A DNA stretch of 64,000 bases from Candidatus Latescibacterota bacterium (GTDB taxonomy: Bacteria > Latescibacterota > Latescibacteria > Latescibacterales > Latescibacteraceae), in NCBI GenBank assembly GCA_042572165.1, contig JBHPFF010000001.1, positions 10,770-74,769 of the forward strand, in the 5' to 3' direction. The stretch's first letter is position 1. Every line of letters starts with the position of its first letter. Both the position numbers and the translations under genes were made by a program. The notes under the pieces are model-generated. The model did no database searches. It saw nothing but the letters and a program-made list of their open reading frames with translations, and had not been told where the DNA came from. Below, in pieces: positions 2,128-63,125 of this stretch.

Positions 2128-3387
2128 ATGATGCGAAATAGATTGATTTGTTTAGTGTTATTAATTTTGCTTGTTTCCTTACCTGCGCAAGGTATTACTC
2201 AGAAAATCACACTAAAGCAGGCAATAGAAGAGACAATTGCTCATAATCCGGAGATTTTAAAAGCTGGCGAGGAACTCAAGGCTGTCAATGCCGGATTCTG
2301 GAAAACTGTCTCACCTGAAAATCCCGGATTTTTTACCGAATATGAGGAGATACCGACAGGGCGACATTCCCTTTCAGGTTATAGTGAGAGAAAAATCGGT
2401 TTAGCACAGGAATTTGATTTTCCGCTGGCTTATTACTACCGCGGGCAGTGGTATAATCAAGAGATACAACAGGCAGATGCGGAATACCGCCTGCTTCGTA
2501 ACGAAGTGATTGTAGAGGTCAAGAAACGTTTTCTCAGGGTTCAGCTTTTAGAAAAAAAGAAACAGTTGTATGAAAACAGCGCTCTTTTAACTCGCCGTCT
2601 CTTTCAACAAGCACAAATCAGAGTTGAGTCAGGTGAGTCTGCACCGTATGATACTCTGAGAGTAAAAATAGATTTAGCAGAAGCAGAAAATAACATTCTT
2701 GCTGTTACAAAGGAATATGAAACCGCTCTTTTTAGCCTGAAGCTTCTTATGGGAAGAGGAAAATCCGATACGATCCATCTTGCGGGAGAACTTACCTTTT
2801 CTCCAATATCGTTACACGGGGATTCCCTAAAACAAATGGCAATGGTTCACCATCCTGTTCTGAAGAAAGCAGCTTCATCGGTCAATCAAAAAAACATTGA
2901 AAAAAAGCTGTCGTATCTAAAATTTATGCCAAATTTCGAGTTGAGCTATTTCAGGCAGGATTTTAGAGATGTAACTTCACCCAAAGCATGGGGTGGAGAA
3001 ATCGGTTTTTCAATTCCTTTATGGTCGTTTCTTATGGGAAGAGGAGCTACTAGGGCTGCATCTCATGAGATAGAAGCCGCCCGGTGGCAAATCGAAGTAG
3101 AGAAGAGAAAAGTGCTGCTTGAAGTTGAGGGTGCTTTTTCAGTCCTCTTTGTTGCCGAGAGACATGTAAATAATTTTCATCAAAATATTTTGCGTGAGGT
3201 TGAAGAACTCGTACGTATTGCATCACGCAGTTACGAAGAGGGAGAGATGGGATACCTGGAGGTAACCGAGGCTTATAGAACCAGAAACAGGACAATGGTC
3301 AGATATTACGATAGGTTATTTGAATATTGTGTCGCTCAAGCCGACCTGGAAAAAGCGGTAGGAGTTCCACTTTTAGGTGATAAATAA
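2128..3387 (+). CDS. outer membrane efflux protein (TolC/CzcC-type outer membrane factor)
   Basis: Signal peptide, then LKQAIEETIAHNPEI, the typical opening of outer membrane factor proteins. About 420 aa with repeated coiled-coil-like halves. First gene of the adaptor-pump operon. Confidence 0.8.
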   Translation: MMRNRLICLVLLILLVSLPAQGITQKITLKQAIEETIAHNPEILKAGEELKAVNAGFWKTVSPENPGFFTEYEEIPTGRHSLSGYSERKIGLAQEFDFPLAYYYRGQWYNQEIQQADAEYRLLRNEVIVEVKKRFLRVQLLEKKKQLYENSALLTRRLFQQAQIRVESGESAPYDTLRVKIDLAEAENNILAVTKEYETALFSLKLLMGRGKSDTIHLAGELTFSPISLHGDSLKQMAMVHHPVLKKAASSVNQKNIEKKLSYLKFMPNFELSYFRQDFRDVTSPKAWGGEIGFSIPLWSFLMGRGATRAASHEIEAARWQIEVEKRKVLLEVEGAFSVLFVAERHVNNFHQNILREVEELVRIASRSYEEGEMGYLEVTEAYRTRNRTMVRYYDRLFEYCVAQADLEKAVGVPLLGDK

Positions 3388-3481
3388 GATACCGGCAGTC
3401 TACAACCAGCTAGAAGCGTTGAAGAGTAAAATTGTAAAACATCGGCGGAAGCTTAATGCCGTATTTCGGAGGTATAATCAC

Positions 3482-4885
3482 ATGAAACGTCTAAAACTGT
3501 TAATCGTTCTGATCCTTTATGTCCTTTGGGGAACCTGCATCAACGGATGTAGCGACAATCACGAATCTGATATACATGATCATGAGCATTCCGAAAATGT
3601 TCAACCAAGCACGGAACATAATGAGGAAGCAGGGGAATACGAAGACCATGACCATGAAGATGATGACAACAGTGACCATGAACAAGACCATGAAGATGAA
3701 CATGAACACATTGAGCAGGAAGATAATGATCATAATCACGATTCTGATAGTGAAGGATACGAGGAGACTGATCATGAGCACGAAGAAGGTGACGCAAACA
3801 ATCATCAGGAAGAAGAGTCGGTTAGTAGTGGTGATGAGTGGGAGGAATTGATAGGTCTTGAAACAGCCGAAGCTCTTTTGATGCCTCTCGAACTGACAAT
3901 TTCTGTTCCGGGCCAGATAGTTCCGAATCAAAACCAGATTGCCGTTGTCAGCCCTTTTGTCGAGTCAAGTATCAATGAAGTATTTGTTAATATTGGTGAT
4001 AAAGTTGAATCAAATGAAATGCTGCTATGCCTTATCAGTCCTGAGATCGGGATGTTACGTGCCGAATACGGTAAGGCAAAAGCTGAACTGGATATTAGAA
4101 GTCAGAACTTTAAAAGACAGTTAGAATTGTTCGAGGGGAAAATTATTTCACGTAAATCGTATCAAGAAGCTGAACTTGAACAGAAAAATTCAGAGATTCA
4201 TTATAATTATGTAGTACAAAAGCTTCTTGCAGTAGGTGTCCAAAATAATGAAATAGAAAATCCGCCAACCGGCCAATGTGATGATGTCGGCTCTACCATT
4301 CATATTTGTGCGCCAATATCAGGTATTGTTACCTCCAGAAATGCAAGTATTGGTCAGAAAGTGGATTCATCCAAACAACTGTTCGAAATTATGAATCTTG
4401 ATAATGTATGGTTAGAAGCGGATATTTTTGAAAAAGATTTAACAAAAATACAGGTGGGACAAACGGTTAAAGTTAAAGTGTCTGCTTACCCACAAAGTAT
4501 TTTCACCGGTAAAATATTCTATATTGCAAACACCCTGAACAGTGATACAAAAACCATAAATATTTTAGTTGAAATCGATAATAAACAGGAAAAACTTAAA
4601 CCCGGTATGTTTGCTGAAACCAATATTGTAGTCGGGGAAAAACCGAGTACCCTGGTGGTTCCAAAAGAAGCGGTTCTGGAAGATGAAAATTTGAAAATAG
4701 TGTTTGTCAGGGAAGAAGAAGAATATCACCGTCATGTTGTCACAACCGGAACTGAGTCTGTTGAAATGGTTGAGATTTTATACGGTTTGGCGCCGGGTGC
4801 TATTGTAGTAACGAAAGGTAATTATCAGTTGAAATCAAAATTAATAATGAGCGAACTTGATCCCCATGCAGGTCATAGCCATTAA
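3482..4885 (+). CDS. RND efflux periplasmic adaptor lipoprotein (CzcB/CusB/ZneB-like) with His/Asp/Glu-rich N-terminal tract
   Basis: Probable true start is MKRLKLL at 3482; the listed ORF start at 3377 overlaps the upstream gene. Lipobox-like LWGTCINGCS. About 110 aa of H/D/E-rich low complexity (DHEHSEN...DHDHEDDD...HEDEHEH). C-terminal HlyD-like beta-barrel/lipoyl region (LEADIFEKDLTKIQVGQTVKV). Confidence 0.85.
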   Translation: MKRLKLLIVLILYVLWGTCINGCSDNHESDIHDHEHSENVQPSTEHNEEAGEYEDHDHEDDDNSDHEQDHEDEHEHIEQEDNDHNHDSDSEGYEETDHEHEEGDANNHQEEESVSSGDEWEELIGLETAEALLMPLELTISVPGQIVPNQNQIAVVSPFVESSINEVFVNIGDKVESNEMLLCLISPEIGMLRAEYGKAKAELDIRSQNFKRQLELFEGKIISRKSYQEAELEQKNSEIHYNYVVQKLLAVGVQNNEIENPPTGQCDDVGSTIHICAPISGIVTSRNASIGQKVDSSKQLFEIMNLDNVWLEADIFEKDLTKIQVGQTVKVKVSAYPQSIFTGKIFYIANTLNSDTKTINILVEIDNKQEKLKPGMFAETNIVVGEKPSTLVVPKEAVLEDENLKIVFVREEEEYHRHVVTTGTESVEMVEILYGLAPGAIVVTKGNYQLKSKLIMSELDPHAGHSH

Positions 4886-4899
4886 TCGGGAGTAAGTCA

Positions 4900-7800
4900 A
4901 TGATAAATAGATTAATAGAATACTCTTTAAAGAACCGCGCAATAGTTATTTTAGCAGTTCTCATTTTATCGGGGATTAGTTACAAGTATTTCAGAGAACT
5001 CCCGGTAGATGTGTATCCAGACCTGAATGCTCCGATAGTGAATGTTATGACCGAAAATCATGGCATGGCACCAGATGATATCGAAACGTTAATTACGTTC
5101 CCCCTTGAAAGTTCATTCAATTCACTGCCCCATGTAAAAAGGGTCAGATCGAATTCAGCACTGGGATTGTCGAAAATCAGCATAGAATTCGAGTACGGAA
5201 CAAATATTTATTTTGCACGCCAGCTTGTATCGGAAAAACTTCAGTTGGTTGCTCCTTTATTGCCGGAGGATACTGAGGCTCCTTTTATTGGCCCCATATC
5301 CTCGATGTTCGCTGATGCAATTGAGTTTACGATTAGTGGAGATGACCTTTTTTCTATACGCGACTTTGCGGAATGGAATTTAAAGCCACGGCTTCAGACG
5401 GTTCCGGGTGTGTCCACTGTGATCAATTTCGGTGGATATTTGAAACAATATCATATTCTTCTCGATCCCAATAGAATGCTGAAATACGGTATTCATGTCC
5501 AGGATGTCATAGATGCCTTGGGAGAAAATAATATTAACTCATCAGGAGGTTATCTGTTAAAAGGACCGGTGGAGAATATAATCAGGGGGATGGGGAGAAT
5601 TAAATCCATCGATGATATAAATAATATAATCCTGAAACATAATAAGAGTGTGCCGATTTATATAAGCAATGTAGCCGATGTCGAAGTCGGCGCTTTTCAA
5701 CGGAGAGGTACATCGGGTGTCAGTGGGGAAGAGGTTGTGGTTGTGACTGTCCAGAACCAGTACAATTCAAATGTACTGAAAACAATAAAGGGAGTTGAAG
5801 AAGTATTAGCCAATCTAAAAGGAGCAGTTACCGACGATTTAAAGATTGAAACATTTTATACGCAACTGGACATGATAATGAAGTCAGTCAACAATATTTC
5901 AGGTGCGATAATTCTCGGAGCGATCCTGGTCATATTGGTTCTCTATGTTTTCCTTAATAATATCGGGAGTACTCTGGTGGTTTCGCTGGCAATCCCGCTT
6001 TGCGGGCTCATTGCCATGATATTTTTTAAGATATTCAATCTGACATTAAACATCATGACATTGAGTGGTATTGCTATCGGCTTGGGAATGATAGTTGACA
6101 GTTCTATTATTATGGCGGAGAATATTTACCGGCATGTGCAGGAGGGTGATAGATTACACGAAGCACTCATACGGGGAGCACAGGAAGTGGGCAATCCGAT
6201 CTTTTATGCCACACTCATTCTTCTTGCTGTTTTTGCTCCGATTTTTACCTTACAGGGAATAGAAGGAAAGATGTTCATTCCCCTGACTTTCGCAGTATCA
6301 GCAACGGTATTCGGATCGTTGTTGATTTCTCTTATTATTACGCCGGTCCTGGCATCAATTATATATAAGAAAAACAACAGGAAGTCTAATAAAAACCGGG
6401 TTTTACTGGCAATCAAAAAGATGTATAACCCCGTTTTAATTTTTGCTTTAGCACATCCGGTACGATTAATAATCACATGCTTGGTATTAATCGCACTGGG
6501 TATACTGGTATCATTTAGGGTCGGTACGGAGTTTATGCCGGAAATGGACGAATCTTCATTGCTCATGGACGTTCTTTTACCTCCCGAGGCCTCGCTGGAA
6601 GAATCGAGCAGAATAGCATCGCTCTTATCTCTCAGAGTTTCAGAGATTCCTGAAGTTATAAAAGTAGTAAGGAGCACAGGAAGAGCAAGGGGAGCTGAGC
6701 ACGCTGCGCCTGTTAATCTCACTCATTCAAACTGCATACTGGTCCCCAAGGAAGAAAGGCGGACATCAATTGAGGAAATCAAAGAAAAAATCAGGCGCAA
6801 GGTCTCGGGCGTTCCGGGAGTAAGTGTAATACTTAACGCTCCTCTCCAGCACAGGATAAACCACGTTGTCACGGGAACAAGATCGGCGATTGCGGTTAAA
6901 ATATTCGGAGAGAATTTGAACTCCCTTACAGAACTTGCTGAAACAATCCAAACTATAATGGGCACTGTACAAGGCGTTACCGACCTACAGATGGAACAAG
7001 TTGCAGGTGTCCCGCAGCTTCAGATACATTTTAACCGCAGGAAGCTGGCACGATACGGTTTAAATGTGAAAGATGTTTCGGATGTAATTGAAGTCGCGTT
7101 AAACGGAAAAGTAGCGACGGAACTGATTGAGACACAGAAACGCTATGAGGTTTTCGTCAGATTCAAAGAAGAATTTCGCAATAACAGAAAGACGATAGAA
7201 AATATTTTAATCGAAACCCCATCGGGATACAGAATTCCCCTAAGTGAAATTGCCGATTTTGTAGATGACAGAAATCCTGCCATTATCAGACGTGAAGACG
7301 CAATCAGACGTGCCATGATTCAATGTAATGTGACCGGAAAAGACATGGGCAGCGTTGTCGATGATATCAAAAACAGGATTTCTCAATTAACCCTGCCTGA
7401 AGGATATTTTATTACGTTCGGAGGCACCTATGAGAACCAGATTAGAGCTATGAAACAACTTACCGTTGTTGTCATTTTGACAATTATCATTGTATTCTGC
7501 CTTCTTGTAATAAGTTTTCGCTCTTTTAAAAATGCACTTTTGATAATCATCTGCATTCCGCTTGCATTGGTGGGAGGAATTTTGATCCTTTATATCACCG
7601 GAAATACTATTTCCGTACCATCGATCGTTGGTTTTATCGTATTGATCGGAATTTCTGTCCAGGATGGTATAGTCCTCGTAAGCCACATAAACAGGTACAG
7701 GAAAGAAGGGGCGCCTCTAAGAGATGCGATAATAAAGGGAGGAAATACCAAGATCCGTCCGGTTCTCATGACTACTTTTACCACAATGCTGGGGTTGTTA

Positions 7801-7941
7801 CCATTAGCTATGCGCAATGTTACGGGCTCAGAAATTCAAAAACCACTGGCATTTGTCATAATGTTTGGACTGTTATTTTCAACGATTATCACGCTTATTG
7901 TGATACCGACGTTATATCTGGCATTAGAAAAAGAGGAATAG
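4900..7941 (+). CDS. heavy-metal efflux RND transporter, CzcA/CusA family
   Basis: 1013 aa with 12-TM RND topology. N-terminus (LIEYSLKNRAIVILAVLILSGISY...DVYPDLNAPIVNVMTE) is typical of the HME-RND family. Confidence 0.9.
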   Translation: MINRLIEYSLKNRAIVILAVLILSGISYKYFRELPVDVYPDLNAPIVNVMTENHGMAPDDIETLITFPLESSFNSLPHVKRVRSNSALGLSKISIEFEYGTNIYFARQLVSEKLQLVAPLLPEDTEAPFIGPISSMFADAIEFTISGDDLFSIRDFAEWNLKPRLQTVPGVSTVINFGGYLKQYHILLDPNRMLKYGIHVQDVIDALGENNINSSGGYLLKGPVENIIRGMGRIKSIDDINNIILKHNKSVPIYISNVADVEVGAFQRRGTSGVSGEEVVVVTVQNQYNSNVLKTIKGVEEVLANLKGAVTDDLKIETFYTQLDMIMKSVNNISGAIILGAILVILVLYVFLNNIGSTLVVSLAIPLCGLIAMIFFKIFNLTLNIMTLSGIAIGLGMIVDSSIIMAENIYRHVQEGDRLHEALIRGAQEVGNPIFYATLILLAVFAPIFTLQGIEGKMFIPLTFAVSATVFGSLLISLIITPVLASIIYKKNNRKSNKNRVLLAIKKMYNPVLIFALAHPVRLIITCLVLIALGILVSFRVGTEFMPEMDESSLLMDVLLPPEASLEESSRIASLLSLRVSEIPEVIKVVRSTGRARGAEHAAPVNLTHSNCILVPKEERRTSIEEIKEKIRRKVSGVPGVSVILNAPLQHRINHVVTGTRSAIAVKIFGENLNSLTELAETIQTIMGTVQGVTDLQMEQVAGVPQLQIHFNRRKLARYGLNVKDVSDVIEVALNGKVATELIETQKRYEVFVRFKEEFRNNRKTIENILIETPSGYRIPLSEIADFVDDRNPAIIRREDAIRRAMIQCNVTGKDMGSVVDDIKNRISQLTLPEGYFITFGGTYENQIRAMKQLTVVVILTIIIVFCLLVISFRSFKNALLIIICIPLALVGGILILYITGNTISVPSIVGFIVLIGISVQDGIVLVSHINRYRKEGAPLRDAIIKGGNTKIRPVLMTTFTTMLGLLPLAMRNVTGSEIQKPLAFVIMFGLLFSTIITLIVIPTLYLALEKEE

Positions 7942-20978: not shown

Positions 20979-22004
20979 TTATTTAAGCGATTCAATGGAG
21001 TTCGTCAGCAACGCTTTCACATATTTAGGATTGTGAACTCCATCGCTCCTGTCCTCCAAACACATCTGGTAATTCATCCTTGCACCAGCAACGTCTGAAG
21101 AATAGGTTCCGGTGACAGCACTGCCGCCTTCTTCTGTCATTATACCTGCTGTAATGAGTAGTGCCGCAAGTTCTGAAAGCAACTCCTCGACTTCCGTTTG
21201 AGCATCATTTAAATCAAACGACTCGAGATCAGCATGACACGACACGCAGCCTGCTACATTAGGTTCAATTGTACCATGATAATCATACCCCGTCTTCATG
21301 GTATGTCCGCCGGCCTGAACACCGTACGGTGTCGCCATGTGGCAGGTCGGGCAGCCATCGGTTATCATGGTCGTATGCGCTGAATTCGTATACGACTCAG
21401 GGCCGCTGACTTCGTAAGCGCCGAAACCGGCCAGAATATTACCCTGCGGGCCGTGATGTGCCCCGAAGCGTGATGAAGTTACTTCATAATCACCACCGCC
21501 TACCGCAAGCGTGTAACCATAATCTCTCGCCTGATGACAGGTAGCACAAAGACTGCCCTTGCCAAAGTCTACGGTTGTTGAAGCACCCATCATACTGCTT
21601 ACCATGTCAATAGAACCAGTAACAACCACGTCATAATCTGTCTCGTCATAATTAGTATGGATGTTATGGCAGGTACGGCAATTGGGTTGCGTAGGATTCA
21701 CGATACCTGTAACTTCTTTACCGGCAACGTGCTGCCTGAATCCTTCACTTGTATGACATAGAGCACAACTCGCTGATCCACCTCGTTCAGAATTGCCAGC
21801 TGTTGCATGAGTCGATGCCTGATATTGGCTCTGTCTGGCAAGAAGTTCAGTAGAAACGCTGTGACAGGTTCCACATAAGCCCGTTCCATCGGCGCCATCT
21901 TCTCCTGTCGGTCCTTGCTCTCCTTCACATCCGAGAAACAATGAAACGACACAAACCAGGAAAACCCAGGCGAACACAATTGAGATAGCTTTTGTTTTTT
22001 TCAT
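20979..22004 (-). CDS. hexaheme c-type cytochrome lipoprotein
   Basis: Signal peptide with lipobox LFLGC. Six CxxCH motifs (CGTCH, CALCH, CRTCH, CATCH, CPTCH, CVSCH). 341 aa. Confidence 0.85.
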   Translation of the reverse strand: MKKTKAISIVFAWVFLVCVVSLFLGCEGEQGPTGEDGADGTGLCGTCHSVSTELLARQSQYQASTHATAGNSERGGSASCALCHTSEGFRQHVAGKEVTGIVNPTQPNCRTCHNIHTNYDETDYDVVVTGSIDMVSSMMGASTTVDFGKGSLCATCHQARDYGYTLAVGGGDYEVTSSRFGAHHGPQGNILAGFGAYEVSGPESYTNSAHTTMITDGCPTCHMATPYGVQAGGHTMKTGYDYHGTIEPNVAGCVSCHADLESFDLNDAQTEVEELLSELAALLITAGIMTEEGGSAVTGTYSSDVAGARMNYQMCLEDRSDGVHNPKYVKALLTNSIESLK

Positions 22005-22110
22005 TAGCTTCCCCTTTCGTTAAAAGATTAATAAAATTGAGACAGTTTTTGTTTTTTTCAATAGTTTCCCCTTACATTTAAAGATTGAACTAAATTTTTT
22101 ATGAACGTTT

Positions 22111-57786: not shown

Positions 57787-57924
57787 GTCTGTTGGTGAAT
57801 TCAGAATTCTGATTATCCGCTAACTGTATTGGTTATTTTATAAAAACTCTTATACCGGTAATAATTGTAAAATCTTGTGTGAGTCAACAGTTTTTTTGAC
57901 TTTGCATTCAAAAAAAGGAAAAAA

Positions 57925-57958
57925 AGGAAAAGCGGTCCGGAAACCGAACCGCCTTTTA
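57925..57958 (-). terminator. rho-independent terminator downstream of rpsA
   Basis: The minus strand reads GGCGGTTCGG-TTT-CCGGACCGC, followed by TTTTCCTTTTTTTCCTTTTTTT. Confidence 0.6.
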
Positions 57959-57985: not shown

Positions 57986-60397
57986 TTATTTGGTTTTTTC
58001 AACCTGTCCGGTTTCGGAATCAACTAGATCAGCATCCTCTGATGATACTACATCTTTATCCTCCGTGACATCTTCCGGGGAGTCGACCTTATCATCAGGA
58101 GTTTCAATTGAAACATCTTCTTCAGTGTCGGTAGTTCCAACCTCTTCTTTCTCTTCCGCCTCCGCTTCGGGAATTAATGCGGAATCACTTTCATCAGGAA
58201 CACCTTCAGCTTCTTCTGAAACGGTTTCAACCGGAACTGTATCCTCCGGAGATTCTTCATCTTTTTCCCCTGCGACATCTTCCGGGGAGTCGATCTTATC
58301 ATCAGGAGTTTCAATTGAAACATCTTCTTCAGTGTCGGTAGTTTCAATCTCTTCTTTCTCTTCCGCCTCCGCTTCGGGAATTAATGCGGAATCACTTTCA
58401 TCAGGAACACCTTCAGCTTCTTCTGAAACGGTTTCAACCGGAACTGTATCCTCCGGAGAGACCTCGGAATCCGAAGGGGCATCCTGAGTTTCCTCAACGG
58501 GCTCAGCTGCCGGTTCGATTTCGCCGGAGGGTTCGGCGGTTTCCTTCACTGCAGTTTCCGTTTCAGAAGCCTCCTTCTCCGAAGGAGTCTCCAGGGCTTC
58601 ACCGACTGTATCACCTATCGTCACTGGTTTGGGCTTGTGTTTGGCCATAAACTCTTCAAGTTCTGCCCTGTCTCTTTCTTCGAAATACTCTCTGACACTG
58701 AGAATGATCTTACGCTGGTCTTTGTCGAATTCTACAACTTTTAAAGGGATTTCATCGTCAATACTGAAAGCATCGACAGGTTTTTTAATGTCCTCACCGA
58801 GCTGGAATGAGGGTACAAATCCCTCAATATCGTTTTCAAGTGCAACAACAACGCCTCGATCGAGGATACGGATAATGATGCCTTTTGTAATCATTCCCAC
58901 AGCAAAGCGCACTTCAAGCGTCTCCCACGGGTCTTCGAAAATCTGCTTATGCCCCAGAGAAATACGCCTGTTTTCCTTGTTAATGTCAAGAATTTCAACT
59001 TCGACTACCTGTCCTCTCTTCATGATCTCGGAAGGATGCTTGATACGCTTTGTCCAACTCATGTCGGAGATATGTACCAGACCGTCGATACCTTCTTCAA
59101 TCTCAACAAAAGCACCGAAATTAGTGAGATTACGGACTTTGCCCTGGACACGACTTCCGATAGGATGTCTCTCATTTATGGTAGCCCAAGGATCCGGTTC
59201 AAGCTGTTTGATGCCGAGCGAGATTTTCTCTCCCGTTTTGTCCACATTCAGCACCTTGCACTCAATTTCATCACCGATACTAAACAATTTGGAAGGATGT
59301 CTTGTAGGCTGAGTCCAACTCATCTCGCTTATGTGGACAAGGCCTTCTATACCGTGCTCAAGTTCCACGAAAATACCGTAATCGGTAATTGAAACAACCT
59401 TGCCGTTGATAACTGAATCCAGTGAATAGCGTTCCTCCACACCTTCCCATGGATAGGGTGTTAGCTGTTTCATCCCAAGGGATATTCTCGTTTTCCCCTC
59501 TTCAAAATTAAGTACCTTAACGTCTATCGTATCACCGATCGAAACGAGTTTGGAAGGATGATTGATGCGGCCCCATGACATATCGGTTATGTGAAGCAGT
59601 CCATCAACACCACCCAGATCTATAAATGCACCGAAATCGGTGATATTCTTAACTATTCCTTGCCTGACCTGATCAATCTCGAGTTCGGCAAGAACTTTTT
59701 CACGCATCTTGGAGCGTTCTTCCTCGAGTACTGCGCGGCGTGATACAACAATATTCCGCCGGGTCTTATTGAGCTTGATTATCTTAAAATTACTTGTCTT
59801 GGATATATACTGGTCGAAATCTCTTACCTGGCGGATATCAATCTGTGAGCCCGGCAGGAAAGCATCGACACCAAGGATGTTGACAACTATACCTCCCTTG
59901 ATGCGTCTCATCATTTGGCCTTCAACTTCCTCATTATTATCATAAATATCTTTGATTCTGTCCCAGACTTTCATGAAGTCTGCTTTTTGTTTGGATAGAA
60001 CCAGCTGTCCTTCCTGGTTTTCGAAATTATCAAGATATACCTCAATAGTATCACCAATATCAATGTCGAGATTTTCACTAAATTCACTGAGGCTGATTAT
60101 TCCTTCACTCTTGAAACCGATATCAACGACGACAGCGCTATCAGTTACCTTCAAAACTGTGCCGGTTATAATGTTCCCCAGTTCGAATGTCTTCATGGTT
60201 TTATCGTACATTTCGAGCATCGAGGAGAATTCATTTTCGCTGTATTCACCTTCTTCTAAAAACCGTAAAGCTTTTTTTGTCAAGTGGTCACGAATGTTCA
60301 CATCGGGAGTGGGATCATTTTCTGTTTTTTGAGGTAATTCTTCCGAATCTGATGATTCGAGGGTTTCGGGTTGTGGGTTTAGGGTTTTTTCGGTCAC
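57986..60397 (-). CDS. rpsA: 30S ribosomal protein S1 with ~240-aa acidic, repeat-containing C-terminal extension
   Basis: Six S1 domains (e.g. GTVLKVTDSAVVVDIGFKSEGIISLSEF, GKVRNLTNFGAFVEIEEGIDGLVHISDMSW). The protein continues beyond about residue 560 with Glu/Asp/Ser/Pro/Thr-rich sequence. Confidence 0.9.
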   Translation of the reverse strand: MTEKTLNPQPETLESSDSEELPQKTENDPTPDVNIRDHLTKKALRFLEEGEYSENEFSSMLEMYDKTMKTFELGNIITGTVLKVTDSAVVVDIGFKSEGIISLSEFSENLDIDIGDTIEVYLDNFENQEGQLVLSKQKADFMKVWDRIKDIYDNNEEVEGQMMRRIKGGIVVNILGVDAFLPGSQIDIRQVRDFDQYISKTSNFKIIKLNKTRRNIVVSRRAVLEEERSKMREKVLAELEIDQVRQGIVKNITDFGAFIDLGGVDGLLHITDMSWGRINHPSKLVSIGDTIDVKVLNFEEGKTRISLGMKQLTPYPWEGVEERYSLDSVINGKVVSITDYGIFVELEHGIEGLVHISEMSWTQPTRHPSKLFSIGDEIECKVLNVDKTGEKISLGIKQLEPDPWATINERHPIGSRVQGKVRNLTNFGAFVEIEEGIDGLVHISDMSWTKRIKHPSEIMKRGQVVEVEILDINKENRRISLGHKQIFEDPWETLEVRFAVGMITKGIIIRILDRGVVVALENDIEGFVPSFQLGEDIKKPVDAFSIDDEIPLKVVEFDKDQRKIILSVREYFEERDRAELEEFMAKHKPKPVTIGDTVGEALETPSEKEASETETAVKETAEPSGEIEPAAEPVEETQDAPSDSEVSPEDTVPVETVSEEAEGVPDESDSALIPEAEAEEKEEIETTDTEEDVSIETPDDKIDSPEDVAGEKDEESPEDTVPVETVSEEAEGVPDESDSALIPEAEAEEKEEVGTTDTEEDVSIETPDDKVDSPEDVTEDKDVVSSEDADLVDSETGQVEKTK
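58050..58465. repeat. in-frame tandem duplication (~216 bp x 2, ~97% identical) inside the rpsA 3' extension
   Basis: Unit gtgacatcttccggggagtcgaccttatcatcaggagtttcaattgaaacatcttcttcagtgtcggtag... recurs from about 58272. It encodes SPEDTVPVETVSEEAEGVPDESDSALIPEAEAEEKEE(I/V)(E/G)TTDTEEDVSIETPDDK(I/V)DSPEDV twice. Confidence 0.85.
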
Positions 60398-60411: not shown

Positions 60412-61737
60412 TTAAGAATTATATTTGGCCTTCTCCTTCAAGGCCATTTGCTTTTTATGTAACTTACCAATATCGTACATTATTCTTTTAGATACAAGTA
60501 AATAATGAATTTTCTTTGTTGGGGCTTCAATTTCTTTCGGACTGAAAATAGGAAGAAAATGTATGGTTATTTTTGTGAGGAATGGCTTAGCCCTGAAAGA
60601 TCCTTCGATATAGCACGGCACAACAGGCACATCAGCCATTATAGTGCACATGCCGACTCCTAACTTGGGTTTACCGAGTTCTCCTGTTTTTGTTCTGGTT
60701 CCCTCGGGAAATAGCATAAGTCCTCTTCCTTCTTTGAGCTTTTGAATCATTTCCTTGAGAGCTTGGCGAGAGAATCCTTGACGGTCAATCGCTATTGACT
60801 TGGACACTAATAGAAATATATTAGCTATAGGAACAGGAAAAAGTTCTTTCTTAGCTAAAAATGACATTTCACGGGGAACAATGCTTCCGATAAGGGGAGG
60901 ATCCAAAAATGATGCATGGTTTGATGCTACTATGAAACCACCCTCTTTCGGAATATGCTCAATTCCCTTGACAGAAAGCCTGAAGAGAATCTTTGCATTC
61001 AATAAAACAAAATATTGGCAAATACGGTATATAAATCCTATATTTGAACGTTTTTGATGTTTTTTCTCTGCCTTGCGCACATGCGATACAATTGCCACAA
61101 CCTGTTCATCCAGCGTCATATCGCTCGTATCAAAAACAACTGCATCATGAGCTTTTTTCAACGGTGCAAGTTCACGCTCTATATTAGCACGGTCTCTCTC
61201 TATAATTTCTTGTCTGAGATCTTCAAGCTTAATATCAATTCCTTTCGCAATCAGTTCGTTAAATCGTCTTTTAACTCTGATATCGATTGAAGCATCGAGG
61301 TAAATCTTGAATTCAGCGTGAGGAAAAACAACAGTTCCTATATCTCTTCCTTCCATGACCACACCACCGTTTTGCCCGAACTTACGCTGCAGTTCAGTGG
61401 CGAGGTCACGCACGCATTTCATGGCACTTACCGATGATACTGCTTTTGTCACATCCCTGTCGCGAATTCTCTCGGTTACATCGGTACCATTAAGCATGAT
61501 GCGATGCCCCTGGAGTGTGAAATGTAACGTTATCTTTGATTTCAAAACAACCTTCTCAACGGATTTTTCTTCCGTCGGGTCAACACCGTTATTCAGAACA
61601 TCAAGAGTAAATGCGCGGTACATTGCGCCGGTGTCAACATAAATGTATTTGAGAGTCTCTGCCACCCTCTTGGCGGTTGTTGTTTTTCCTGAACCTACCG
61701 GACCATCTATGGCTATTATCGGCTTTCGCATCGTCAT
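60412..61737 (-). CDS. cmk: bifunctional cytidylate kinase / 1-acyl-sn-glycerol-3-phosphate acyltransferase fusion
   Basis: N-terminal Cmk (IIAIDGPVGSGKTTTAKRVAE...YVDTGAMYRA). C-terminal LPLAT domain with NHASFLD (HX4D) and LFPEGTRT motifs. 441 aa. Confidence 0.85.
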   Translation of the reverse strand: MTMRKPIIAIDGPVGSGKTTTAKRVAETLKYIYVDTGAMYRAFTLDVLNNGVDPTEEKSVEKVVLKSKITLHFTLQGHRIMLNGTDVTERIRDRDVTKAVSSVSAMKCVRDLATELQRKFGQNGGVVMEGRDIGTVVFPHAEFKIYLDASIDIRVKRRFNELIAKGIDIKLEDLRQEIIERDRANIERELAPLKKAHDAVVFDTSDMTLDEQVVAIVSHVRKAEKKHQKRSNIGFIYRICQYFVLLNAKILFRLSVKGIEHIPKEGGFIVASNHASFLDPPLIGSIVPREMSFLAKKELFPVPIANIFLLVSKSIAIDRQGFSRQALKEMIQKLKEGRGLMLFPEGTRTKTGELGKPKLGVGMCTIMADVPVVPCYIEGSFRAKPFLTKITIHFLPIFSPKEIEAPTKKIHYLLVSKRIMYDIGKLHKKQMALKEKAKYNS

Positions 61738-62501: not shown

Positions 62502-63125
62502 TTATTCGTTGTTGTGGTCAGAAAGTATATCGAGGGTATCGTCTGTAGATTCTCCCGTTGATGTTTCCAGAGATAGCTGAGCCGGTGGGGTTTCCTGAAT
62601 TTCTGTGCCGTCGAACATTGAGGCGAGTTCATCCGCTCCCGGCAGTTCTTTAATTTCTTTTAAACCGAAATAACGGAGGAATTCCTGGGTAGTGCCATAC
62701 AGCAAAGGCTTTCCAACAGATTCGCCTCTACCCTTTATCTCGATGAGATCACGGTTATGGAGTGTACGGATTGAAGCGTCGGAATCCACACCCCTGATGG
62801 CGTCTATTTCCGTCTTGGATATGAGCTGCTTATAAGCAATGATAGCCAGGGTTTCAAGAGATGCGCGTGACAGTTTCGGTCTCGATTTTATATGGAATAG
62901 TTTTTCAATAAAAGGGCCGTACTGGGCTAACGTTTCAAACTGAAATCCGCCAGCAACCTCAACAATTCTGAACGTCCTTCCCTCTTTCTCATAGCGACAG
63001 TTCAGGCTGTCAATAATATCCAGAAGTTCTGTGGCCGCGAGCCCATCGGTGATCTCGCAGAGCTTTTCCAACTCAACCGGCACATCTGTTGCGAAAAGAA
63101 CTGCTTCAATTATTTTTTCTCTCAT
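62502..63125 (-). CDS. scpB: segregation and condensation protein B
   Basis: IIEAVLFATDVPVELEKL winged-helix N-terminus, typical of ScpB. 207 aa. Confidence 0.85.
   Translation of the reverse strand: MREKIIEAVLFATDVPVELEKLCEITDGLAATELLDIIDSLNCRYEKEGRTFRIVEVAGGFQFETLAQYGPFIEKLFHIKSRPKLSRASLETLAIIAYKQLISKTEIDAIRGVDSDASIRTLHNRDLIEIKGRGESVGKPLLYGTTQEFLRYFGLKEIKELPGADELASMFDGTEIQETPPAQLSLETSTGESTDDTLDILSDHNNE

Follow-up and report, generated by a model that had tools for sequence, protein, structure and literature searches.

Why should ribosomal protein S1, the ribosome's mRNA-capturing protein, end in a long acidic tail that contains a near-perfect tandem duplication? An earlier note on a contig of Candidatus Latescibacterota bacterium had described such a protein. 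We asked whether the tail truly belongs to the S1 gene, whether its duplication is real and recent, how it compares with the S1 tails of related bacteria, and what it may do. The analysis covers a window of 64,000 nucleotides, that is, the whole stretch of DNA under study, and positions are counted from its first letter.

The S1 gene and its acidic extension

The reading frame is the genuine, syntenic six-domain rpsA of a Latescibacterota bacterium (Table 1). The same amino-acid sequence is entered at NCBI as MFC1691938.1 ('30S ribosomal protein S1 [Candidatus Latescibacterota bacterium]'). It passes the equivalog cut-offs of TIGR00717 (610.2 bits versus 577) and NF004953 (752.9 versus 720) in NCBIfam, and scores 753.4 for NF004952 (cut-off 524). 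The identification as an S1 protein with six domains, already made in the earlier note, is borne out by six stretches of Pfam PF00575 (E 2.9e-97), six being the number in Gram-negative-type S1, and by six beta-barrel blocks in the AlphaFold2 model, mostly with pLDDT >90. Solved S1 chains align up to residue 576-580 of our query, and the alignment includes homology to domains 1-2 of Escherichia coli S1. It is through domains 1-2 that bS1 binds the 30S subunit, and the protein is required for translation initiation. The N-terminus (about 32 residues) is acidic and modeled with low confidence. Domain 6 is followed by a helix and by a conserved linker motif of ~30 aa (…RDRAELEEFMAKHKPKPVTIGDTVGEAL…); the motif DKAEFEEFKEKYKPKPVTIGDAFGDIL is conserved where the tails of Latescibacterota relatives begin.

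The neighborhood of the gene is conserved as well. Cmk-rpsA is the classical gene context of rpsA, and here the upstream neighbor is a fused cytidylate kinase and acyltransferase gene. The order ScpB-RluB-Cmk-PlsC-RpsA-MiaB-like-TPR-MutS is found again in relatives L080-L082, and the miaB-like gene lies downstream from rpsA in our window as in relatives. An intrinsic-terminator-like hairpin follows the stop codon. The 'AAAAAAAGG' array reported by TRF at 57910-57931 is the T-run of this terminator read on the plus strand.

Table 1. Features of the rpsA locus (positions in the 64,000-nucleotide window; strand in the third column)
Feature	Position	Strand	Description	Source
rpsA CDS	57986..60397	-	803 aa, GTG start, TAA stop at 57986-57988	ORF list
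Six S1 (OB-fold) domains	58697..60181	-	residues ~73-567	Pfam PF00575, AlphaFold2, alignment with solved S1 chains
Post-domain-6 helix and conserved linker motif	58583..58696	-	residues ~568-605	helix 568-586 in the AlphaFold2 model
Hypervariable polyanionic tail, predicted disordered	57989..58597	-	residues 601-803	AlphaFold2, charge-hydropathy, comparison
Repeat unit 1	58256..58462	-	69 codons, residues 646-714, codon register	TRF period 207, codon-by-codon comparison
Repeat unit 2	58049..58255	-	69 codons, residues 715-783	TRF period 207, codon-by-codon comparison
Last 20 codons	57989..58048	-	possibly the decayed remnant of a third copy, or a flanking direct repeat that imperfectly resembles the unit start (TCATCAGAGGAT versus TCTCCGGAGGAT)
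Antisense Ser-rich ORF	57990..58487	+	165 aa, TTG start	ORF list
Fused cytidylate kinase and acyltransferase (cmk-plsC)	60412..61737	-	upstream neighbor, 14 nt before the rpsA start	Pfam
Intrinsic-terminator-like hairpin and T-run	57918..57956	-	13-bp stem, 7 G-C pairs, 30 nt past the stop	terminator scan, sequence

After domain 6 the protein continues, in the same frame, into the long acidic extension that the earlier note had assigned to the S1 gene. Its length had been given as about 240 residues; we obtain ~228 when counting from the end of domain 6 homology, or ~203 from the disorder boundary in the AlphaFold2 model. Residues 576-803 (228 aa) consist of 37% D+E and 6% K+R, with a net charge of -71. 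The extension had also been described as having no basic residues, but it contains 10-14 lysines depending on where its boundary is set: residues 571-803 hold 13 Lys, 2 Arg, and 1 His, and residues 591-803 hold 10 Lys, with Arg and His absent. A disordered tail, as had been proposed, is what the predictions indicate. In the AlphaFold2 model residues 601-803 have pLDDT <50 and form no secondary structure. The tail has a mean hydropathy of 0.379, and the boundary for folding at its net charge of 0.343 per residue is 0.537; these values lie far on the disordered side and thus support disorder of the tail. The solved S1 chains offer no counterpart to the tail, and Pfam gives no family match for the tail itself. 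A protein search with a tail-only query (200 aa) returned no match and missed even the protein from which the query was taken, an outcome that composition filtering presumably explains. We also considered a salt-in halophile origin of this acidity. It is ruled out, since the proteins of the window overall have 13.2% D+E, 11.4% K+R, and a normal spread of pI, which argues against a general acid proteome.

Tandem duplication and turnover of the tail

The tail contains a tandem repeat at 58044-58459 with 2.0 copies, 95% matches, and no indels (TRF score 769), by far the strongest in the 64-kb window (the runner-up scores 169). The earlier note had reported two units of 216 bp (72 aa) with ~97% identity. 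The tandem duplication stands, but its period is 207 bp (69 aa): when the tail is compared with itself, 329 of 605 positions match at offset 207, against 194 of 596 at offset 216. The reported identity averages two values, 197-198/207 (95-96%) over the whole unit and 183/186 (98.4%) over its core. At the protein level the units are identical at 61 of 69 residues. The 10 nucleotide differences fall in eight codons and are non-synonymous in all eight, which suggests weak constraint on sequence, although 0/8 synonymous changes is statistically indistinguishable from neutrality. The repeat thus has the form of a coding, in-frame VNTR, being head-to-tail, of a length divisible by three, and of high identity. 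The last 20 codons of the gene match the unit start at 32 of 60 nt (z ~2.4; other in-frame tail offsets give a mean of 20.6 +/- 4.8), and their best non-self offsets are the two unit starts. This hints at a partial third copy or at flanking microhomology.

To place this tail in context, we compared it with those of close homologs. The earlier note had implied that an acidic S1 tail was singular, and this is not so: tails are net-negative in 118/118 measurable close homologs, with lengths of 42-274 aa and a median of -0.21 charge per residue, and the S1 frame stays open to the tail end in all 118. Among related genomes, 75 of 75 complete S1 genes read straight into an acidic tail. A polyanionic S1 tail, hypervariable and prone to repeats, is therefore a trait of the whole clade, of which the window shows a single example. 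The comparison of S1 length that had been suggested as a check gives 33-274 aa for the tails of GTDB species representatives. Since some close relatives have tails of only 33-42 aa, the greater part of the 228 aa cannot be indispensable.

Tail length also changes over short distances. Between S1 proteins with <5% core divergence it can differ by up to 101 aa. About 24 of 120 homologs, or a fifth, have unrelated tail repeats of their own, with periods of 14-91 aa, and units as short as 11 aa occur at the same position in relatives. The 69-aa unit has no homology to the tails of relatives after composition correction (E > 1), and its uncorrected matches reflect composition only. Within clusters of at least 90% identity, tails gain or lose complete units and stay in frame to the C-terminus: a 34-aa unit is found at 4 or at 5 positions, and an 11-aa unit is present as 2 or as 3 copies. 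Two closely related, syntenic 5.8-Mb contigs carry a 102-bp tail unit x3.4 and x4.4, exactly one unit apart, and the single-cell genome of Ca. Latescibacter anaerobius carries a 123-bp tail unit x2.1. Copy-number polymorphism is observed in these relatives only, the 207-bp unit being known from one allele. Still, unrelated repeats at the same position, with copy numbers that vary within clusters, uphold the proposal that the two units arose recently, by in-frame duplication in a region prone to expansion. Given that tail length changes routinely in the clade, the duplication in our window appears real but only mildly unusual. The two 69-aa units are best accounted for by one recent in-frame duplication event, which in itself was probably nearly neutral.

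A putative role for the tail and the alternatives

The following model accounts best for the data. The gene encodes a normal six-domain S1, then a short conserved helix and linker, and then a polyanionic tail of ~200 residues, predicted to be disordered. An acidic tail is always present in the clade (Latescibacterota, Zixibacteria, Gemmatimonadota, Krumholzibacteriota, and neighbors), but only bulk properties are kept: strong negative charge, near-absence of Arg and aromatics, and a frame open to the end. Length and sequence turn over fast by in-frame tandem duplication and loss, for which slippage during replication or unequal recombination at short direct repeats is the probable cause. Of this anatomical and evolutionary account, the single duplication event included, we are highly confident. 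The earlier note had suggested that such a tail could modulate interactions with mRNA or the ribosome, or serve as a disordered spacer. As to its function, the tail could behave as an RNA-like polyanion that repels itself and is anchored to domain 6. It would cover or fill, for short times, the basic surfaces with which the S1 OB folds bind RNA, act as a competitor of non-specific RNA, and help free S1 to stay in solution. The tail may act as an RNA mimic, an autoinhibitor, or a solubilizing brush. By analogy with the acidic ends of Hfq and SSB, we tentatively propose it as a putative electrostatic RNA mimic and autoinhibitor of S1. The explanation as a whole, anatomy, evolution, and function together, we consider reasonably probable. 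A simpler idea, that the tail neutralizes a basic core, was rejected: the S1 core also carries a net negative charge (median -29.5), and longer tails are found on more acidic cores (rho -0.31), a correlation of the opposite sign. These values count against the proposed explanation too, as do the lack of a conserved C-terminal tip motif and the short tails of some close relatives. Improbable in our view is a stronger version of the model, in which the tail would be a clade-specific regulator of mRNA recruitment in Latescibacterota, Zixibacteria, and Gemmatimonadota, a tethered RNA mimic on the mRNA-capturing arm of the ribosome, with a length tuned in populations by VNTR-like gain and loss of units; rpsA, which encodes an essential ribosomal protein, would then resemble a contingency locus.

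The tail could instead be a functionless low-complexity appendage. In that case the exposed C-terminus would be unconstrained, its purine-rich GAx sequence would expand and contract by slippage, and its acidity, as that of sequence which is neither sticky nor RNA-binding, would be tolerated but not used. Neutral drift of this kind fits the extreme variation in tail length even between near-identical cores, the copy-number polymorphism within clusters, the existence of relatives with the shortest tails, and the purely non-synonymous differences between units 1 and 2. It also fits a variable part that shows neither sequence conservation nor charge compensation with the core: the last 16 residues of 120 homologs contain no conserved C-terminal tip motif, and only a ~2-fold enrichment of Lys at -2 to -4. 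What it explains poorly is why an acidic tail of at least 42 aa is retained in every one of the 118 measurable homologs, with the frame open through up to 274 residues, a composition far from the proteome background (37% versus 13% D+E, with Arg and aromatics near absent), and indels of whole units that leave the C-terminal end in frame. Together, the universal acidic tails, the open frame, the skewed composition, and the whole-unit indels indicate that the composition of the tail and its full translation, at a minimum, are under selection. We therefore see the functionless appendage as rather unlikely, and retain a tail under selection for its bulk properties.

It could also be argued that the two-copy state is an artefact of assembly or amplification (a mis-resolved repeat or a chimera of strain alleles) and that the true gene has one unit or some other number. 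The window apparently comes from a metagenome-assembled genome, and the S1 protein forms a singleton cluster with no independent assembly for comparison: no conspecific S1 was found, the nearest core identity being ~82%, and metagenome contigs scanned for a degenerate pattern encoding the unit peptide DSALIPEAEAEE gave 0 matches. The tails of relatives are sometimes frameshifted in assemblies (P0174, L007), which agrees with the earlier description of such tails as assembly-error hotspots. The sequence of the repeat, however, speaks against an artefact. The longest exact run common to both units is 111 nt, and the 10 sites at which the copies differ lie on both sides of it, so that the duplication is no trivial assembler loop; reads of 150 nt, or k-mers >111, can order the two units. 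Moreover, single-copy alleles cannot yield the junction between unit 1 and unit 2 (…GGGGAAAAAGATGAA|GAATCTCCGGAGGAT…), and the same type of repeat, with varying copy number, is present in the megabase-scale contigs of relatives and in a single-cell genome. An artefactual copy number is thus quite improbable, and the duplication is most likely real.

Two further readings are hardly credible, one in which a sequencing error or the loss of a stop codon has joined an independent gene or foreign DNA to rpsA, and one in which the Ser-rich ORF on the plus strand is the real gene. A 165-aa antisense ORF does exist and the tail itself lacks a family match, but in Latescibacterota relatives domain 6 runs in frame through the conserved linker motif into the tail, all 75 complete genes of related genomes run straight into an acidic tail, the terminator-like hairpin comes after the stop codon at 57986, and the antisense ORF has no Pfam match, its Ser-richness probably reflecting TCx/TTC opposite GAx codons. 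The earlier note had called this ORF artefactual. It exists as described (165 aa, TTG start, Ser-rich), and we infer from the missing Pfam family and its position opposite a conserved open frame that it is most plausibly a side effect of the acidic-codon repeat and not a gene.

The tail matters in either case. In these phyla it gains and loses complete repeat units, even between strains that are nearly identical. A tail that modulates RNA binding would constitute a natural, tunable form of acidic-tail autoregulation on the ribosome. A tail without such an effect would still call for caution in annotation and assembly. Length outliers and frameshifts of rpsA in these phyla stem mostly from the tail, and the antisense Ser-rich ORF is not to be annotated as a gene.

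Comparison with known systems

A published survey gives ~570 aa for six-domain S1 (PMC6705787). Several poorly known phyla add to it a highly charged tail of 40-270 residues, predicted to be disordered; the words 'tail' and 'acidic' are absent from the published S1 surveys that we searched, and our literature searches found no description of an acidic or repeat-bearing S1 tail. E. coli RpsA (557 aa, PDB 6h4n_y) and the chain 9zcd_A (591 aa) resemble the window S1 in their six S1/OB domains (query residues 54-580, E 1e-133 to 1e-155), and the cmk-rpsA neighborhood is common to the window and E. coli. However, both chains end 31-39 residues past the point from which the window S1 runs for 228 more, and they lack its acidic N-terminal stretch of ~32 residues. 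Much closer is the S1 of Candidatus Latescibacter anaerobius SCGC AAA252-E07 (P0064 / L005), with ~75% core identity, the linker motif, and cmk-plsC upstream. Repeats of 123 bp and 48 bp occur in its acidic tail of 274 aa. They are unrelated to the window unit in sequence and period and represent independent expansions.

As a repeat, a close parallel is the 57-bp VNTR within leuA of Mycobacterium tuberculosis, which is likewise in-frame in a housekeeping gene (PMC2704214). Like the S1-tail repeats, it is head-to-tail, has a unit length divisible by three, and varies in copy number between close strains (shown for S1 in relatives, 102-bp x3.4 versus x4.4). The 207-bp unit of the window is longer, and it sits in a terminal disordered tail and not in a folded enzyme.

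As a protein extension, the tail recalls those of other nucleic-acid-binding proteins. SSB and phage T7 gp2.5 also have acidic C-terminal tails. In Hfq, the acidic C-terminal domain (CTD) is a nucleic-acid mimic by which the protein autoregulates its binding of RNA (Santiago-Frangos et al. 2017, PMC5606850). These tails are short (tens of residues) and have a defined acidic tip, whereas the window S1 tail spans ~200 residues and shows neither a conserved tip of the Hfq CTD/SSB type nor compensation of core charge. Like the tails of Hfq, SSB, and gp2.5, the S1 tail extends an OB/Sm-type nucleic-acid-binding protein at its C-terminus, is acidic and predicted to be disordered, and keeps its acidity while length and sequence vary between lineages.

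The rpsA gene and its acidic tail

The 803-aa ORF contains six S1 domains (Pfam PF00575, E 2.9e-97), as the earlier note had proposed, and its product scores above the NCBI rpsA equivalog cut-offs (TIGR00717, 610 bits versus 577; NF004953, 753 versus 720). It is a 100% match to MFC1691938.1, [quoted passage not shown] at NCBI, which is a singleton within a 15-billion-protein collection. The gene lies 14 nt downstream of a cytidylate kinase-acyltransferase fusion and upstream of a MiaB-like radical-SAM gene, a TPR-SPOR gene and mutS, an order common to relatives. Given the domains, the equivalog scores, the database identity, the synteny and the hairpin after the stop codon, the ORF is a real, syntenic rpsA, and the acidic tail is part of the same gene. 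In most related loci, the cytidylate kinase and the PlsC-type acyltransferase are two adjacent, unfused genes; the fusion is also found in Candidatus Latescibacter anaerobius (L005), in Krumholzibacteriota loci L056-L064, and in a few others. The antisense ORF described in the earlier note is present in the ORF list.

Features of the rpsA region and other observations in the window
Feature	Position	Strand	Details
HlyD-family membrane-fusion protein	3377-4885	+	His/Asp/Glu-rich stretch, residues ~60-150
1013-aa ORF	4900-7941	+	next after HlyD-family gene
57-bp tandem repeat	21978-22086		1.9 copies, 86% identity, A+T-rich
rpsA ORF	57986-60397	-	803 aa, GTG start, TAA stop; 57986-58700 is its 3' end
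Terminator-like hairpin	30 nt past rpsA TAA stop	-	13-bp, G+C-rich, then T-run
Antisense ORF	57990-58487	+	no family match
Tandem repeat (TRF)	58044-58459		period 207 bp
Repeat unit 2	58049-58255	-	codon register
Repeat unit 1	58256-58462	-	codon register
S1 N-terminus	60302-60397	-	residues 1-32, before domain 1
AGGGTTT x4 repeat	60360-60387		7-bp unit, inside coding region of the acidic S1 N-terminus
cmk-plsC fusion	60412-61737	-	one 441-aa ORF, cytidylate kinase + PlsC-type acyltransferase, directly upstream of rpsA
ScpB homologue	62502-63125	-	acidic C-terminal tail

The acidic extension comprises residues 576-803 (228 aa, somewhat shorter than the 240 or so first estimated), with 37% Asp+Glu, 6% Lys+Arg and a net charge of -71. 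Contrary to what had been stated, it does contain basic residues: residues 571-803 include 13 Lys, 2 Arg and 1 His, and residues 591-803 include 10 Lys, with zero Arg and zero His. Proteome-wide acidity was not seen among the window's proteins (13.2% D+E, 11.4% K+R). In an AlphaFold2 model built with a 48-sequence alignment, the six OB barrels are confident (pLDDT >90 for the most part) and a helix spans residues 568-586, while residues 601-803 stay at pLDDT <50 and lack secondary structure. Charge-hydropathy of the variable tail (mean hydropathy 0.379 versus a fold/disorder boundary of 0.537, net charge 0.343 per residue) likewise predicts disorder, the state that the earlier note had suggested. 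Alignments to solved S1 chains (E. coli, 557 aa; 9zcd_A, 591 aa) stop at query residues 576-580, and those chains end 31-39 residues later. The S1 N-terminus is also acidic with low pLDDT.

Elsewhere in the window, the HlyD-family stretch holds 32 D/E within 60 aa and many His; this gene and the next look like a putative metal-efflux adaptor and RND pump pair. The ScpB homologue, too, has a C-terminal tail (~40 aa) that is acidic and rich in Ser/Thr (…ETSTGESTDDTLDILSDHNNE); proteins with short acidic tails may be frequent in this genome.

Acidic S1 tails across the clade

We compared S1 length and tail charge across the 120 best homologues (Latescibacterota, Zixibacteria, Gemmatimonadota and MAGs). 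A net-negative tail is present in all 118 that were measurable, with lengths of 42-274 aa and a median charge of -0.21 per residue; 32 tails reach at least 150 aa and 15 at least 200 aa. Tails in GTDB species representatives agree with this (33-274 aa), and Eisenbacteria S1 carries a tail of a different kind (~41 aa). Latescibacterota tails begin with the conserved motif DKAEFEEFKEKYKPKPVTIGDAFGDIL, beyond which they keep composition only, and proteins with cores <5% divergent can differ by up to 101 aa in tail length. No conserved tip motif was found in the C-termini of the 120 homologues, where Lys is weakly enriched (~2-fold) at positions -2 to -4 (…EKEV, …EKES, …ENKE, …VEKTK). Approximately 24 of the 120 have tail repeats of their own, with periods of 14-91 aa (e.g., 39, 41, 61 and 91 aa), and composition-corrected comparison detected no similarity between these and the window's 69-aa unit. 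The repeats are independent expansions. The acidic S1 tail is thus a clade trait, and the repeat in the window is one case among many.

Clade-wide, acidity and an open frame are kept in the tail and its sequence is not, and tail length changes fast, in whole units. We infer selection on bulk electrostatics and nothing else, the additional 69 aa being probably nearly neutral. As a tethered polyanion, the tail may keep non-specific RNA off the OB-fold surfaces by competition, help S1 to stay soluble, or both; this is by analogy with Hfq, whose acidic C-terminal domain plays such a part toward the Sm core (PMC5606850). The main alternative is that the tail is a tolerated appendage without function. 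The maintained acidity and reading frame speak against it. Several tests gave no support to a specific mechanism: the core is acidic too (median net charge -29.5), a more acidic core goes with a longer tail (rho -0.31), and the C-termini share no tip motif.

The tandem duplication and changes in copy number

The tandem duplication noted earlier is present, although its period is 207 bp (69 aa) and not 216 bp (72 aa), and its identity is not uniformly 97%. TRF reports 2.0 copies with 95% matches and no indels (score 769), the top-scoring tandem repeat of the 64-kb window (runner-up, 169), and the tail matches itself at 329/605 positions at offset 207 versus 194/596 at offset 216. The units differ by 10 nt in 8 codons, 8/8 non-synonymous and concentrated in the final six codons; the core of 186 nt is 98.4% identical, with an exact common run of at most 111 nt. 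The 20 codons past unit 2 bear a weak likeness to the start of the unit (32/60 nt versus 20.6 +/- 4.8 at other in-frame offsets), which would fit an old partial copy or a short direct repeat that seeded the duplication.

Copy-number change is real in the clade. Within clusters of ≥90% identity, a 34-aa unit occurs at 4 or 5 positions (738 versus 772 aa from the same start) and an 11-aa unit occurs two or three times, with the conserved C-terminal end in frame at every copy number. The rpsA tails of two closely related, syntenic contigs of 5.78 and 5.77 Mb (L081, 3334-3675; L082, 3454-3905) are one 102-bp (34-aa) unit apart, x3.4 versus x4.4, which is direct evidence of copy-number polymorphism. 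The Candidatus Latescibacter anaerobius single-cell genome has tail units of 123 bp (x2.1) and 48 bp (x2.3). The tails of P0174, a homologous S1, and of locus L007 switch to a basic or non-acidic reading, frameshift-like, through either assembly error or real mutation; such regions are therefore error-prone, as the earlier note had warned, or mutation-prone. Protein and contig searches found no conspecific sequence for this S1, but an artefactual two-copy state is very improbable: sites at which the copies differ flank their longest identical run, only 111 nt; single-copy alleles cannot yield the junction between units 1 and 2; and like repeats are documented on megabase-scale contigs of relatives.

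Relation to known systems

The original observation is real once its numbers are corrected, and its interpretation was broadly right; the clade-wide pattern is of more interest than this single duplication. Two surveys of S1 architecture (PMC6705787, PMC6566611) put six-domain S1 at ~570 aa, and the words "tail" and "acidic" are absent from their text. No account of S1 tails that are acidic or carry repeats turned up in the literature searched. RNA-binding proteins with acidic autoinhibitory tails are a known class. In-frame VNTRs in housekeeping genes are exemplified by M. tuberculosis leuA (PMC2704214). Since both phenomena are already known, the tail is not a new system; it extends a well-known ribosomal protein by a disordered, hypervariable stretch that is specific to the lineage.
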